A DNA stretch of 64,000 bases, taken from Ignavibacteriota bacterium (GTDB lineage: Bacteria; Bacteroidota; Ignavibacteria; UBA10030; UBA6906). Below are positions 26,813 to 38,943 of the stretch, piece by piece (the first letter of the stretch is position 1; the number at the start of each line of letters is the position of its first letter). A model generated the notes under the pieces. That model saw only the letters and a list, made by a program, of their open reading frames with translations, had not been told where the DNA came from and did no database searches. A program made the position numbers and the translations under genes. Where the stretch lies: NCBI GenBank assembly GCA_016707525.1, contig JADJHP010000003.1, positions 76,677-140,676 of the forward strand. The letters run 5' to 3'.

Positions 26813-27601
26813 TCAGATCGTATCGAGCGCCCGGCGGAACGCCGCGGTCCACACACGGGTGCCACCCGGCGAAGGATCGCTCTCCAGCTGCCGGAGAAGT
26901 GCCGAACCCACGATCACGCCGTCGGTGTCGCGGGCAAAGGTCACCGCATCCTCAGGCCGCGAGATCCCGAATCCCACGAGCATCGGGTTGCGCGTGACAT
27001 GCGCACGCACCGCACGGACGTTGTCGAGCGCCGAACCGGCCACGGCCCCGCCGGTCACGCCGGTGGTGGACACGCAGTACACGAATCCCGACGACGCAGC
27101 ATCGATCGCACGCACGCGCGCCGGAGGCGTCGTGGGCGTCGCGAGCAAGATCCCGGCCAATCCCGCGGATGTCACCGCCGGCGCATACGAGCTCCACTCC
27201 TCCAGGGGCAGCTCGGGAAGGATCAGGCCGTCAACCCCGGCAGCAGCCGCATCGACGAAGAATCTGTCCACTCCATAGCGCATGATCGGATTGAGATATC
27301 CCATGAGCACCAGTGGGACACCGGACCGCTGCCTGATCCGTGCAACGAGTTGCAGGATCCACGGCAGGGTCACGCCGTTCGCGATCGCCGTGCCGGACGC
27401 CTTCTGGATGACCGGACCATCGGCGAGGGGGTCCGAGAACGGAACCCCGATCTCCACGATGTCCGCCCCGCCATCCTCAAGTGCGCACACGAGGTCTGCC
27501 GTTGCATCCAGTGTCGGATACCCGGCGGTGAGGAACATGGCAAGCGACCGCCTGCCCTTCGTTGCATTGCCGCTCAACCGTTCTTGGAGTTTCATCGTCA
27601 T
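26813..27601 (-). CDS. trpA: Tryptophan synthase alpha chain
   Basis: 262 aa with [17 protein letters not shown] and GFGISRPE motifs. Confidence 0.95.
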
Positions 27602-28800
27602 AGGTTCGCGTATGTTGTCATATCCTTGTCACCCCGCCCCGACACGTTCACCAGGATGAGGGGTGAGCCGGTGGTGCGCGGCGCGAGCTTTTCCAGCCAT
27701 GCAAGAGCATGCGCAGACTCGAGCGCGGGGATGATCCCTTCGAGGCGGGAAAGCAGTTTCGCCGCGGCAAGGGCTTCCTGATCTGTCACGGCAACATACT
27801 CCACCCGCCCGGCATCCTTCAGCGCGCTGTGCTCGGGGCCGACGCCGGGATAGTCCAATCCCGCGGAGATCGAGTGGGCAAGTTGCACCTGTCCGTCATG
27901 GTCCTGCAGCAGATAGCTGAGGGAACCGTGCAGGACACCGGGAGCTCCCAGCGAGAGCGTCGCGGCATGCTGCCCGGACGTGAGGCCGTGCCCGGCAGCT
28001 TCGACGCCGATCATGCGTGCCCTCGTGCCCAGGAACGGCTCGAAGAGCCCGATGGCGTTGCTCCCTCCCCCGACGCACGCCAGCAGGATATCCGGATCGC
28101 GTCCTTCAGCGGCACGCACCTGCTGCATTGCCTCTTCACCGATCACGCTCTGGAAATCGCGAACGATGGCGGGGTACGGATGAGGGCCAACGACCGATCC
28201 GATGATATAGAATGTATCGCGGACGTTGGTCACCCAATCCCGGATCGCTTCGCTCGTCGCATCCTTGAGCGTGCGCGTCCCGGAATGGACCGGCACCACG
28301 CGCGCACCGAGCATTTCCATCCTGCGCACATTCAACTGCTGACGCTCGATGTCCTCGTCGCCCATGTACACATCGCAGGCAAGTCCCATCCGCGCGGCCA
28401 CCGTGGCCGTTGCCACCCCATGCTGCCCGGCACCCGTCTCGGCAATGATCCGCTTCTTCCCCGATCGTTTTGCCAGAAGGATCTGACCGATGGTGTTATT
28501 GATCTTGTGTGCCCCGGTATGGCAGAGATCCTCCCGCTTCAGGTAGATCTTCACCTTTCCGTAGTGTGCGGCAAGGCGGTCGGCGCGTGTGATCGGCGTG
28601 GGCCGCCCGGCAAAGGTCGTCAGGAGTTCGCGCAGCTCTGCCGTGAATGCCGGGTCCTTCCGCGCGTCCTGATACAACGCCTCGAGTTCGTCCAGCGCGG
28701 GAATGAGGGTCTCGGGCACATAGCGGCCACCGTACGCTCCGAAATAGCCCCGTGCATCGGGCATACCTCCGGGAGCAAGTGCAGCAGGAGCGTGTGTCAT
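27598..28800 (-). CDS. trpB: Tryptophan synthase beta chain
   Basis: 400 aa with [16 protein letters not shown] (PLP lysine) and the GGGSNAIG loop. Confidence 0.95.
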
Positions 28801-29828
28801 GTGGTGCTTCCTTCGTTCAGTGTTCTTCCAACCACCGGCGCGAGCCGGCGGATATCATCCATCAGCGCAGCAAAGCGGGATGGTTTCAAGGACTGTGCGC
28901 CATCCGAAAGTGCGGCAGCAGGATCCGGATGGACCTCGATCATCAGCCCATCCGCCCCCGCCGCGATCGCGGCCATGCTCATCGCCGGAACAGCTTCCCA
29001 GATCCCGACACCGTGACTCGGATCCACGATCACAGGCAGGTGGGTGAGCCGCTTGAGGACGGGGATCGCATTCAGATCCAGCGTGTTCCGTGTCGCCGTT
29101 TCGAACGTCCGGATCCCCCGCTCGCACAGGATGATCTGCAGGTTGCCGCGGCTCGCGATGTACTCTGCCGCCATCAGCAGTTCCTCGATCGTCGCGGCGA
29201 TGCCGCGTTTGAGCAGCACCGGTATGCGGAGTTCGCCGACGGCCTCCAGGAGACTGAAATTGCTCATGTTCCGTGCGCCGATCTGCAGCACGTCCGCCAC
29301 TTCCGCCACGGCGGGGAGGGTGCCCGTATCCTTCACTTCCGTCACGATCGCAAGCCCCGTCTTCTCGCGCGCCTCGCGGAGAAGGACCAATCCTTCTTCC
29401 TTCATGCCCTGAAAACTATACGGCGACGAACGTGGTTTGAATGCGCCGCCCCGCAAGAACTGTGCACCTGCCGACTTCACGTTTCGCGCAACGGTAACGA
29501 TCTGCTCCCGGCTCTCCACCGAGCAGGGCCCGGCCATCACCGCAAGTTCGGGCCCTCCAATGCTCGCTGTCCCGACCTTGATCACGCTGCTCTCCGGCCT
29601 CGCCTCACGACCGACGAGCTTGTACGGCTTGGAAACCGGTATCGCCCGTTCCACACCGGGCAGGATCGTGAACACATCCGCGGCGATCGCGCCGTGATTA
29701 CCGGTGATGCCGATGGCCGTCCGCTCCGCCCCGGGTATCTCGTGGGCCCGGAATCCGAGATCGCCGATCTTCAGCATCACTTCCCGGACCTGGTCCGGCG
29801 TCGCATCCTGTCGCATCAGGACGAGCAT
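28797..29828 (-). CDS. aroF: 3-deoxy-7-phosphoheptulonate (DAHP) synthase, class I-beta with N-terminal regulatory domain
   Basis: 343 aa with [29 protein letters not shown] and VDPSH motifs. The ~70-aa N-terminal ferredoxin-like extension resembles Thermotoga-type enzymes. The gene is embedded in the trp operon with 4-nt overlaps. Confidence 0.9.
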
Positions 29829-32271: not shown

Positions 32272-32837
32272 GACAGCCTCTCCACCCAGTTCCTGAGAAT
32301 TTGCATGCCCTCTGTGGTCAGGATCGATTCGGGGTGGAATTGCACGCCTTCCACCGGCAACGTCCTGTGACGCACGCCCATGATCACGCCATCCTCGGTC
32401 TCCGCGGTGATCTCCAGAGCATCAGGCAGCGAGGAACGCTCGACGACCAACGAATGGTAGCGCGTCGCATCGAAGGGATCCGACACGCCCCGGTACAGCG
32501 ACGTTCCGTGATGCCGCACGCGCGATGTCCGTCCGTGCATCAGCGACGGCGCGTGGATGACGGATCCGCCGAAGGCGGCGCCGATCGCCTGATGGCCGAG
32601 GCAGACGCCGAAGAGCGGGAACGAGGTACTACAGTGGCGGATGACGTCAAGGGTGACGCCGGCATCCTCCGGTCGGCCGGGGCCGGGGGACAACAGGATC
32701 CCGTCCGGCGCCAATGTTGTGATCTCGTCGACGGTCACGGCATCGTTGCGGCGCACCAAGAGATCGGTGCGGAAGGTGCCGAGTGCCTGCACGAGATTGA
32801 ACGTGAAGGAATCATAGTTGTCGATCACGAGGATCAT
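32268..32837 (-). CDS. trpG: Anthranilate synthase component II (glutamine amidotransferase)
   Basis: 189 aa with ILVIDNYDSFTFNL, GVCLGHQ and the FHPES triad region. Confidence 0.93.
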   Translation of the reverse strand: MILVIDNYDSFTFNLVQALGTFRTDLLVRRNDAVTVDEITTLAPDGILLSPGPGRPEDAGVTLDVIRHCSTSFPLFGVCLGHQAIGAAFGGSVIHAPSLMHGRTSRVRHHGTSLYRGVSDPFDATRYHSLVVERSSLPDALEITAETEDGVIMGVRHRTLPVEGVQFHPESILTTEGMQILRNWVERLS

Positions 32838-34324
32838 TGTGCACCTTCCTCCTGCCCGTCGGGCGCGGCGAGCCCGCGTGAGGCGAGACGTATCGCCTCC
32901 ATGAGCACCCGCGCCTTGTTGACCGTTTCGTCGTATTCATTCGACGGCACGGAGTCGGCAACGATCCCCGCGCCCGCCTGCAGCTTCAACGTTTGTCCAT
33001 GCGCGAACACCGTGCGTATCGCGATACAGGTATCCATCGTGCCGTCCATGCCGAAATACCCCACGGCGCCTGCGTACGCTCCACGCGGAAAGGGTTCGAG
33101 GTCAGCGATGATCTCCATCGCACGCACCTTCGGGGCACCCGAGACCGTCCCTGCAGGGAAGCACGATTCAAAGATGCCCACCGCGTCGATGTCCGGACGG
33201 ATCCGGCCGCGCACTTCCGAAACGATGTGCATCACATGCGAATAGCGGTCCACGCGCTTGAAGACCGGCACTTCCACGGAACCGTACTCGGAGACCCGGC
33301 CAACGTCGTTGCGCCCGAGGTCCACAAGCATCACATGCTCGGCAAGTTCCTTGGGATCGGCGAGAAGGTCCAGTTCAAGACGTTTGTCGTCGGCTTCATC
33401 CACACCGCGGCGCCGGGTACCGGCGATCGGCAGAAGCTCCACTGTGCCGCCGTGTGCCTGGATGAGCATTTCCGGCGAAGAGCCGGCGAGTTTGGTAGCG
33501 CCGAAATCCAGGAAGAAAAGGTACGGGGATGGATTGATGATGCGCAGGGAACGATAGACGGCAAAGAGATCGCCGGTGAACGTACTGCGTGTCCTTCGTG
33601 AGAGCACCACCTGAAAGATATCGCCTTCGGTGATGTGTTCTTTCGCACGAAGCACGGCCTGCTCGAACCCCGCGCGGTCCGGTTCACCCGCTCCATCCAT
33701 CGCACAACTGAACGGCGTGGCCGGTGCGGTCACTCTCCGCAGGCGGAGTTCCAGCGCAGACAGGGCGGCCTTCCCCGATTCGTACTGGTCTTCCAGTGGC
33801 GCCGCCGGGTCGATGAAGACATTGTGCATGAGCGTCATGACCTGCCGGTGATGGTCGAACTGCACGACCGAGCCGAACAGGCCGAGGATCGCATCGGGCT
33901 CCTCACCCGCTGCGGGCGTGATAGGTATCCGTTCGATGTGCCTGACGCAGTTGTACCCGATGTATCCCACAAGTCCGCCAAGCAGCCCGTGGGGCTCCTG
34001 CACCGGTGCGATCCTGTGCGGTGCGAGGATACTGCGGATGACGGAGAACAGCGGGCCCTGCACCTCCTCCGTTCCCCTGGCATCGCGCACGGTCACCGAT
34101 CCGTTGCGGGCTTCGAGGATCACCCGCGGACGCGTGCCGATGAACGAAAAGCGTCCGATCTTTTCGTTCGGTTCGACGCTCTCCAGGATGAAGGACGGCA
34201 CCCCCTCTTCACGGAGCGTGAGGTAGGTCAGGACCGGGGTCAAGGTATCCGCCACCAGGGTCCGCACGAGCGGGATCACGGTGTACGAAGCTGCCAGTTG
34301 CCTGAATGTTGCGAACGGTATCAT
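32834..34324 (-). CDS. trpE: Anthranilate synthase component I
   Basis: ORF 32834..34384 trimmed to the ATG at 34324 (MIPFATFRQL...) with GGGAGG just upstream; the longer version would read through the attenuator hairpin. Chorismate-binding motifs GAYAGAVGYF and IRT are present. Confidence 0.93.
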   Translation of the reverse strand: MIPFATFRQLAASYTVIPLVRTLVADTLTPVLTYLTLREEGVPSFILESVEPNEKIGRFSFIGTRPRVILEARNGSVTVRDARGTEEVQGPLFSVIRSILAPHRIAPVQEPHGLLGGLVGYIGYNCVRHIERIPITPAAGEEPDAILGLFGSVVQFDHHRQVMTLMHNVFIDPAAPLEDQYESGKAALSALELRLRRVTAPATPFSCAMDGAGEPDRAGFEQAVLRAKEHITEGDIFQVVLSRRTRSTFTGDLFAVYRSLRIINPSPYLFFLDFGATKLAGSSPEMLIQAHGGTVELLPIAGTRRRGVDEADDKRLELDLLADPKELAEHVMLVDLGRNDVGRVSEYGSVEVPVFKRVDRYSHVMHIVSEVRGRIRPDIDAVGIFESCFPAGTVSGAPKVRAMEIIADLEPFPRGAYAGAVGYFGMDGTMDTCIAIRTVFAHGQTLKLQAGAGIVADSVPSNEYDETVNKARVLMEAIRLASRGLAAPDGQEEGAQ

Positions 34325-34336
34325 GGACCTCCCATA

Positions 34337-34400
34337 AAAACGAAAAAACCCTTCCTGGCTGTCAGGAAGGGTTGTGCATGGCACAACGATGGAAAAGACA
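34337..34400 (-). promoter_or_regulatory. trp attenuator: 7-bp hairpin (34372..34388), then an 11-bp terminator hairpin (34348..34374) and a U-tract (34337..34347)
   Basis: Minus strand reads GTTGTGC-CAT-GCACAAC, then AACCCTTCCTG-ACAGC-CAGGAAGGGTT followed by TTTTTTCGTTTTT, ending 12 nt before the trpE ATG. The leader-stop region CAGGAGGTT is partly complementary to the 5' terminator arm. Confidence 0.7.
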
Positions 34401-34484
34401 CTAACCTCCTGCAGGTTGCGGGCTCATCATCGTGCGCCACCACCAGGACGACAGGTTTGTGCGATATGCGTTGACGGATTTCAT
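34401..34484 (-). CDS. trpL: trp operon leader peptide, 27 codons with three consecutive Trp codons
   Basis: Hand translation of the minus strand gives ATG AAA TCC GTC AAC GCA TAT CGC ACA AAC CTG TCG TCC TGG TGG TGG CGC ACG ATG ATG AGC CCG CAA CCT GCA GGA GGT TAG = MKSVNAYRTNLSSWWWRTMMSPQPAGG*. The UGG triplet is at 34445..34437. Too short for the supplied ORF track. Confidence 0.7.
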   Translation of the reverse strand: MKSVNAYRTNLSSWWWRTMMSPQPAGG

Positions 34485-34492
34485 GATGGTGC

Positions 34493-34521
34493 AATATACG
34501 TGCAGAGGGGTGTCGTGTCAA
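34493..34521 (-). promoter_or_regulatory. Near-consensus sigma-70-type promoter of the trp operon (TTGACA-17 nt-TATATT)
   Basis: Minus strand has TTGACA (34521..34516), a 17-nt spacer and TATATT (34498..34493). Only 8 nt separate the -10 hexamer from the leader ATG. Confidence 0.55.
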
Positions 34522-34542
34522 GCGAAAAGTGGCAACGCGGTG

Positions 34543-38943
<4,401 letters not shown>

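Follow-up and report, generated by a model that had tools for sequence, protein, structure and literature searches.

In the trpL leader of Escherichia coli and other enterobacteria (RF00513), a short open reading frame (ORF) with tandem tryptophan (Trp) codons lies between the promoter and trpE, and the leader RNA is divided into four segments that can form the alternative pairings 1:2, 2:3 and 3:4, the last of these being an intrinsic terminator. Segment 1 holds the regulatory codons, and from the position of the stop codon a terminating ribosome masks segment 2. Here we describe an element predicted to have the same layout upstream of trpE in an uncultured Ignavibacteriota bacterium (contig JADJHP010000003.1; the whole 64-kb stretch that was analyzed is called the window), and we conclude that it is very probably a ribosome-mediated, leader-peptide transcription attenuator of the trp operon, built like that of E. 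coli. The two leaders differ in that they have no sequence or covariance-model similarity, the window ORF has 27 codons rather than 14, its Trp codons are three at positions 14-16 instead of two at 10-11, and the distance from the Trp run to the stop is 11 codons as against 3. Furthermore, the window leader has no Shine-Dalgarno sequence, starts 8 nucleotides (nt) past the -10 box and shows no evident TrpR-type operator, and the operon behind it has an additional gene, for 3-deoxy-7-phosphoheptulonate (DAHP) synthase.

Amino-acid attenuators were reportedly predicted in Bacteroidetes/Chlorobi as well by Vitreschak et al. in 2004, and promoters of the Bacteroidetes have a consensus -7 box. One of the motifs nearest to the present one is Bacteroid-trp (RF01692; Weinberg et al. 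2010), which stands before trpB and trpE in Bacteroidetes and is presumed to be a Trp peptide leader (PMC2864571 supplement); its authors called the structure “a loosely conserved hairpin” (PMC2864571). In its Flavobacteria and Cytophaga seeds the -7 promoter box TAnnTTTG stands 2-11 nt before the leader AUG (PMC2864571 supplement file 136), a near-leaderless arrangement comparable to that of the window leader, and from such sequences it appears that Trp leaders of the Fibrobacteres-Chlorobi-Bacteroidetes (FCB) group may in general be leaderless or nearly so. Both kinds of leader belong to the FCB group, lie upstream of trpE (or trpB) and hold a short ORF with at least two UGG codons, and the Bacteroides leader in the RF01692 seed, which in our own translation reads MMTMQVNTYWWWRPLQLRQS, has the WWWR run (UGGUGGUGGCGC) in common with the window leader. 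Bacteroid-trp leaders are AT-rich and have Bacteroidetes-type promoters, whereas the family of the window is GC-rich, with TTGACA/TATATT promoters, a conserved CCCUUCC/GGAAGGG terminator and a Trp run at codons 14-17. A preliminary description of this locus had implied that Trp attenuation would be new to the FCB group, which is overstated given the 2010 prediction in Bacteroidetes (PMC2864571). A Trp leader in this group is not new in kind, and the one unusual feature of the window leader is its probably leaderless start.

Such a start has parallels elsewhere. The trpL attenuator of Sinorhizobium meliloti (rnTrpL/peTrpL) also has three tandem Trp codons. Its transcript begins at the trpL ATG and is leaderless, upstream of trpE(G) (PMC7298713), a start that the window leader probably shares; the S. 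meliloti operon is constitutively transcribed and controlled by attenuation. The differences are an unrelated phylum and sequence, a 14-amino-acid peptide, and the trans-acting roles of the attenuated RNA and peptide that have been documented in S. meliloti. Short leaderless ORFs rich in the cognate amino acid are likewise found in Actinobacteria, in the trp leaders of Corynebacterium and Streptomyces and in the mycobacterial poly-cysteine leaders that attenuate downstream biosynthetic genes (bioRxiv 10.1101/834739), but these belong to another phylum, and some of them act on translation and not through an intrinsic terminator. In the literature collection that we searched, there was no report of a leader peptide in Ignavibacteria.

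Results

A Trp-rich leader between a promoter and trpE

Leader nucleotides are numbered from the A of the leader AUG (nt 1), so that the window coordinate is 34485 - n. The features on which the argument rests are the following:

34521..34493, minus strand: sigma-70-type promoter TTGACA-17 nt-TATATT, with the -35 box at 34521..34516 and the -10 box at 34498..34493
34484..34401, minus strand: leader ORF (trpL-like) of 27 codons plus a UAG stop, translated as MKSVNAYRTNLSSWWWRTMMSPQPAGG
34445..34437, minus strand: regulatory codons, three UGG in a row (TGGTGGTGG), codons 14-16, in frame in the leader ORF
34461..34432, minus strand: segment 1, leader nt 24-53, CACAAACCUGUCGUCCUGGUGGUGGCGCAC, holding the Trp codons; a near-duplicate of segment 3; partner, segment 2
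34425..34399, minus strand: segment 2, leader nt 60-86, GAGCCCGCAACCUGCAGGAGGUUAGUG, holding the last leader codons and the UAG stop (nt 82-84); partner, segment 1 or segment 3
34376..34359, minus strand: segment 3, leader nt 109-126, CACAACCCUUCCUGACAG, containing the terminator 5′ arm (34373..34363)
34357..34347, minus strand: segment 4, leader nt 128-138, the terminator 3′ arm CAGGAAGGGUU, followed by the U-tract UUUUCGUUUUU at 34346..34336
34373..34347, minus strand: terminator AACCCUUCCUG-ACAGC-CAGGAAGGGUU (arms also written AACCCTTCCTG-ACAGC-CAGGAAGGGTT), followed by the U-tract TTTTCGTTTTT at 34346..34336
34387..34371, minus strand: local 7-base-pair (bp) hairpin GUUGUGC-CAU-GCACAAC, -7.5 kcal/mol, kept in the closest relatives only
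32834..34333, minus strand: trpE, 496 amino acids, ATG at 34324 with GGGAGG at 34333..34328; NCBIfam match, first gene of the operon

The leader ORF lies between the trpE ATG and a promoter that matches 11 of the 12 consensus positions and that the preliminary description had not mentioned. That description had reported the 27-codon ORF and its three consecutive UGG codons, the 7-bp hairpin, and the GC-rich 11-bp hairpin with its U-tract (34373..34336) ahead of the trpE ATG, and all of these are present at the positions that it gave. It had also judged tandem Trp codons in so short an ORF, at this position, to be very unlikely by chance, and this judgement needs to be divided. The 9-mer TGGTGGTGG occurs in a single copy on the two strands of the window where about 0.7 copies are expected by chance, and by itself it is not significant. 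The peptide WWW is found once in the six-frame translation of the window, in the leader ORF, and its expected number in any given 27-codon ORF is about 1e-4; what matters is the position, an in-frame site within an ATG-started ORF in the ~220-nt region upstream of trpE.

The leader ATG is only 8 nt past the -10 box, and a Shine-Dalgarno sequence is absent before it. Because of this promoter geometry, and because a gap of 6-15 nt between the -10 box and the AUG is kept in all relatives, we infer that transcription probably starts at the leader AUG or at most ~3 nt before it, which would give a 5′ untranslated region of 0-3 nt and a leaderless or nearly leaderless message. The leader ORF would then be translated without a Shine-Dalgarno sequence. 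At trpE the situation is the opposite, since the window has a strong Shine-Dalgarno sequence there (GGGAGG) and most relatives, by inspection, have GGAGG-like purine-rich motifs before the trpE ATG; with a strong signal at trpE and none at the leader, its absence from the leader looks like design.

Covariance-model searches identified no described family. Rfam cmscan was run over the whole window at gathering thresholds, over 34250..34600 at E values up to 10, and over 19 related loci; in the window and the related loci only tRNAs passed and no family matched the leader. The Trp_leader family (RF00513) gave no match in the window at the gathering threshold and none over 34250..34600 at E values up to 10, and Bacteroid-trp (RF01692) gave none in the window or the 19 related loci, on the assumption that the family is still in Rfam release 15. 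A weak rnk_leader match covered the terminator hairpin only, and a match to RcsR1 (E 1.4) was noise; both were set aside.

Predicted alternative pairings of the leader RNA

Segments 3 and 4 make up the terminator, for which a terminator scan reported a 5-nt loop on an 11-bp stem that contains six G-C pairs. The calculated energies range from -17.9 to -18.5 kcal/mol, and the U-tract ends 11 nt before the trpE ATG. Upstream of it, segments 1 and 2 can form a hairpin that the preliminary description had also not mentioned. When nt 1-86 are folded by themselves, this hairpin has the lowest energy (-20.3 kcal/mol), and in it the UGG codons pair with CCGCAACC and AACCU with AGGUU. In an alignment of the six closest leaders 88.7% of the cells of this 1:2 hairpin are paired, and one pair is compensatory, A29-U81 becoming U29-A81 in two of the relatives (L164 and L161; numbers of this kind designate individual trpE loci).

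The pairing of segment 2 with segment 3 is the candidate antiterminator. The sequence CAGGAGGUU, which reaches into the UAG stop by one base, can pair with the 5′ arm of the terminator, and the predicted helix joins leader nt 71-86 to nt 109-126 through 15 bp with three small bulges (-13.9 kcal/mol). Its core pairs CAGGAGG (34411..34405) with CC(UU)CCUG, the terminator-arm side being CCUUCCUG at 34370..34363. In the alignment 93% of the cells of this helix are paired and none covary, and the core is invariant in the subgroup of closest leaders. A duplex search with the terminator 5′ arm placed its best partner, in every leader, within the last leader codons or across or just after the stop codon, with p about 0.003 against shuffled sequences in the window and 0.003 to 0.53 in the other leaders. 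The pairing across the stop codon that had been proposed from the sequence is therefore present as the best partner of the arm, although it is longer than described, shows no covariation and is only marginally favored by energy models.

The preliminary description had the 7-bp hairpin followed by the terminator. Both exist, but they overlap by three nucleotides (AAC) at the terminator base and therefore cannot both be complete; whether the smaller hairpin is a competitor or a helper of the antiterminated state is uncertain.

To model the influence of the ribosome, a 28-nt footprint was masked and the transcript was folded up to the terminator loop, the output being the probability of finding the 5′ arm of the terminator paired with sequence upstream of it. 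The three values on each line below are for no ribosome, for a ribosome stalled with the last Trp codon in the A site (W16 in the window), and for a ribosome at the stop codon:

Window: 0.35, 0.74, 0.44
L001: 0.31, 0.80, 0.43
L166: 0.53, 0.82, 0.47
L164: 0.36, 0.86, 0.26
L079: 0.39, 0.98, 0.39

At the stop codon the ribosome would cover nt 67-94, and with them the greater part of segment 2, from nt 67 onward. Minimum-energy folding of whole leaders under ribosome masks was noisy and showed no uniform switch across relatives, and it was replaced by these co-transcriptional snapshots and by the duplex searches against shuffles. Consensus folding of 13 leaders (MAFFT alignment, RNAalifold) yielded a mis-registered terminator and nothing more; the helices upstream of it could not be aligned from one subgroup to the next.

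The module in related genomes

For comparison, trpE loci were collected without regard to what lay upstream of them, from species-representative genomes (80 loci), from metagenomes (80 loci) and from an exact-protein look-up (9 loci). The nearest genomes are metagenome-assembled genomes (MAGs) of Bacteroidota/Ignavibacteria with TrpE 57-93% identical, and an identical TrpE is recorded from an Ignavibacteriae MAG, which bears out the FCB-group assignment that had been proposed from the sequence. One locus (L008; TrpE 55%, on a short contig labelled Chitinophagales) had no usable upstream sequence. Among the loci with usable upstream sequence and TrpE 55-93% identical, 23 of 24 have the whole module of promoter, ORF and terminator. 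The promoter reads TTGAC(A/T)-N16-18-TATA(T/C)T, the leader ATG follows 6-15 nt past the -10 box, the ORF has 24-31 codons with a Trp run that begins at codon 14-17, and the leader stop codon stands 24-38 nt 5′ of the arm of a GC-rich hairpin with a U-rich tail. The runs read WWW, CWWW, WCWW, WRWW or WWWW, with two separated Trp codons in L085 (WCRW) and L006 (WRLW); the run begins at codon 20 in the distant L079, and it is missing in one of the 24. Over all relatives the ORF measures 24-34 codons. The N-terminal halves of the leader peptides are unrelated between subgroups.

In all 19 distinct leaders examined, the window included, a U-rich tail follows a hairpin whose energy lies between -13 and -25 kcal/mol. 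In none of the sequences is the pairing of the terminator broken, and there are compensatory changes from A-U to G-C in L165 and from U-A to C-G in L002, while in L007 and L079 it has a wholly different sequence and the same shape. Thus the alignment of upstream regions, which the preliminary description had named as a check, reveals both conserved Trp codons and compensatory stem changes, in the terminator and once in the 1:2 hairpin. Two FCB-type loci that are more distant, L079 and L147, differ in sequence and keep the layout, and in both the 2:3 antiterminator is sharply defined (in L147, GGAAAGTGGG with CCCACTTTCC).

The gene upstream of the module is a kinase gene in some genomes, a DNA polymerase III delta gene in L167/168 and others again in L003, L004 and L006; since this neighbor varies, the module travels with trpE. 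Some 90 trpE loci of Chloroflexi served as a control, and tandem Trp codons in a short ORF upstream were found in none of them. Between the window and its closest relative, L001, the promoter and leader are 94% identical, the flanking coding sequence 82-84% and the third codon positions of trpE 60%. The higher identity of the leader points to strong purifying selection on a stretch that does not code for a conventional protein.

Several loci depart from this arrangement. L086 (TrpE 56% identical) has neither a leader ORF nor a terminator, and ~130-190 nt upstream of its trpE there are two 19-bp palindromes, TAGTGTACAATGTACACTA and TAGTATGCAATGTATACTA, which overlap promoter-like hexamers and look like operators of a DNA-binding repressor in place of an attenuator. 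In L007 and L087 the leader and terminator are ~235 nt upstream of trpE, and the ~150-nt GC-rich spacer that follows the terminator has no Rfam match. Other Trp-rich short ORFs are found upstream of trpE in L089-L094 and L147 (TrpE 44-49% identical); those of the form “..SWRC(A/V)LWWR..” have no obvious U-tract terminator, and “..NSWWWQF..” in L147 has one. Short acidobacterial ORFs with WW (MLVAQAERQFAWWTG...) upstream of trpE were rejected as leaders, being probably the C-terminal end of the upstream gene: their sequence is conserved, and several reach or enter the trpE start.

The operon and its flanks

Behind the leader the genes are ordered trpE-G-D-C-F-(DAHP synthase)-B-A, down to about 26813. 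They are closely packed, with NCBIfam matches for trpE, trpG, trpD, trpC, trpF, DAHP synthase and trpB. Two need separate mention:

28797..29828, minus strand: DAHP synthase gene (NF006421, 3-deoxy-7-phosphoheptulonate synthase), between trpF and trpB; NCBIfam match
26813..27601, minus strand: putative trpA, a 262-amino-acid ORF assigned by position and size alone

A longer trpE frame, GTG-started from 34384, was considered and rejected, because the alignments with TrpE of the closest relatives (57-93% identical) begin at residue 1, the ATG at 34324, where the Shine-Dalgarno sequence also lies. That longer frame would engulf the terminator, and gene callers could in this way mis-start trpE and conceal the attenuator. 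The genome is ~62% G+C, and long spurious antisense ORFs run over 34250..34600, for example one of 279 amino acids at 33635..34474 on the plus strand.

On the other side, the upstream gene encodes a hybrid histidine kinase of 1466 amino acids with its stop codon at 34543. The 21 nt between this stop and the -35 box (the 34522..34543 region) are free of terminators, so the attenuator hairpin is the first terminator after the kinase gene, and read-through transcripts of the kinase would end there as well.

Discussion

The sequence-level hallmarks of trpL-type attenuation, which the preliminary description had recognized in this leader, are upheld by their retention with trpE in nearly all of the related loci despite differing upstream genes. 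The simplest competing account would be that the hairpin is the plain terminator of the hybrid histidine-kinase gene and the WWW ORF a chance frame in GC-rich intergenic DNA. There is, after all, no other terminator between the kinase stop and trpE, a 27-codon open frame is not rare at 62% GC, and a chance copy of TGGTGGTGG in the window would be no surprise. However, a consensus promoter separates the kinase gene from the hairpin, the module stays with trpE where the gene upstream is a different one (L167/168, L003, L004, L006), the Trp run, ORF length and stop position are kept in 23 of 24 relatives and absent from the Chloroflexi loci, and the leader is more conserved than the genes on either side of it. 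We regard this account as close to refuted and its probability as negligible. Control in trans, with the ORF incidental, is scarcely more credible. The terminator of a trp leader is also the output of the TRAP and T-box systems of Firmicutes, and a leader that has no Shine-Dalgarno sequence might suit a TRAP-like protein, a T-box sensing uncharged tRNA-Trp or a small-molecule riboswitch. Against this, neither a T-box nor any other Rfam family matched the region at E values up to 10 or the 19 related loci, and the leader has only three (G/U)AG triplets, at most two of them with TRAP-like spacing, where TRAP needs about 9-11 spaced by 2-3 nt. Moreover, the conserved features are the ones that a ribosome reads (an ATG at the 5′ end, an open frame, the UGG run and the position of the stop), while the N-terminal codons drift.

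A more serious alternative accepts that Trp is sensed by ribosome stalling and proposes an output other than the 2:3 antiterminator, such as the 7-bp hairpin, another upstream partner, Rho, mRNA stability, or a long-range helix between nt 42-62 and nt 88-111 as the “off” structure. Several observations favor it and weigh against the attenuator as we have drawn it. In the window sequence the antiterminator is 2.3-3.9 kcal/mol above the constrained minimum-energy fold, and as it is invariant, covariation speaks neither for nor against the 2:3 pairing. The unconstrained fold of the full leader prefers the long-range helix to the local 1:2 hairpin, so the exact “off” structure is ambiguous in these models, even if the long-range helix likewise leaves the terminator intact; and the prediction of the 1:2 hairpin is weaker in some distant relatives. 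The 7-bp hairpin takes three nucleotides of the terminator base, and in several relatives the predicted partner differs or a switch is absent, simple energy models giving no clear one in the L003 group, L084, L161 and L167/168. To these must be added that the attenuator is known here from sequence, conservation and in silico folding, and that, with no Shine-Dalgarno sequence at the leader ATG, its translation depends on a presumed leaderless or short-leader mode of initiation in this lineage.

On the other hand, segment 2 does not vary within the subgroup and no other sequence pairs better with the terminator arm, segment 1 is almost a copy of segment 3, as it is in classical attenuators, the exchange of A29-U81 for U29-A81 supports the 1:2 hairpin, and the antiterminators of L079 and L147 are unambiguous with the same layout. 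On balance another output seems unlikely to us. The terminator and the leader ORF are firm, and the exact antiterminator is the least certain part; we lean, by a modest measure, toward the specific 2:3 pairing that the folding models propose for that role.

If the leader works in this way, the attenuator most likely turns the trp operon on only when tryptophan runs short. From a strong constitutive promoter the transcript would begin at, or within ~3 nt of, the leader AUG. With no ribosome on the RNA, segment 1 would pair with segment 2 once both had been made, the 3:4 terminator would form, and the polymerase would halt in the U-tract, releasing an RNA of ~140-150 nt. With charged tRNA-Trp plentiful, a ribosome would pass the UGG codons 14-16 and reach the UAG, where its footprint would lie over segment 2 (CAGGAGGUUAGUG), leaving segments 3 and 4 to pair and transcription to terminate. 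When Trp is scarce, the ribosome would instead stall at the UGG codons, with a footprint from about leader nt 25 to 58 that melts segment 1; the freed segment 2 would then take segment 3 in the 15-bp helix before segment 4 is made, no terminator would form, and the polymerase would continue into trpE-G-D-C-F-(DAHP synthase)-B-A. The start of transcription, the translation of the leader, the coupling of ribosome and polymerase and the response to Trp are all presumed steps of this scheme.

Over and above the single locus, we can tentatively imagine, while considering it somewhat doubtful, that these leaders constitute a distinct family of leaderless or near-leaderless Trp attenuators, absent from Rfam, in an uncultured GC-rich branch of Ignavibacteria-like Bacteroidota, and that they have a common ancestor with Bacteroid-trp, whose leaders are AT-rich. 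In that case attenuation by the ribosome might, in the FCB group, generally proceed through initiation at a 5′ AUG without a Shine-Dalgarno sequence, the ribosome loading at the very 5′ end of the nascent RNA. As in Sinorhizobium, the peptide or the plentiful attenuated RNA (~145 nt) might have additional roles in trans.

The window element is real and conserved; it belongs to a textbook class of attenuators and had not been catalogued before. As the mechanism is the textbook one, current understanding is not overturned. What is gained is that the trp operon of an uncultured, Ignavibacteria-like lineage can be annotated with a regulatory element. The DAHP synthase gene within the operon is implied to be under Trp control, and a Trp attenuator would then gate an entry enzyme of the common aromatic pathway too. 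Classical leader-peptide attenuation is extended to a GC-rich branch of the FCB group that current Rfam models miss, and a new covariance model could be started from the distinct leaders, which number about 19. Finally, the consistent 6-15-nt gap between the -10 box and an AUG that has no Shine-Dalgarno sequence makes this family a natural test case for the coupling of leaderless initiation to transcription during attenuation.

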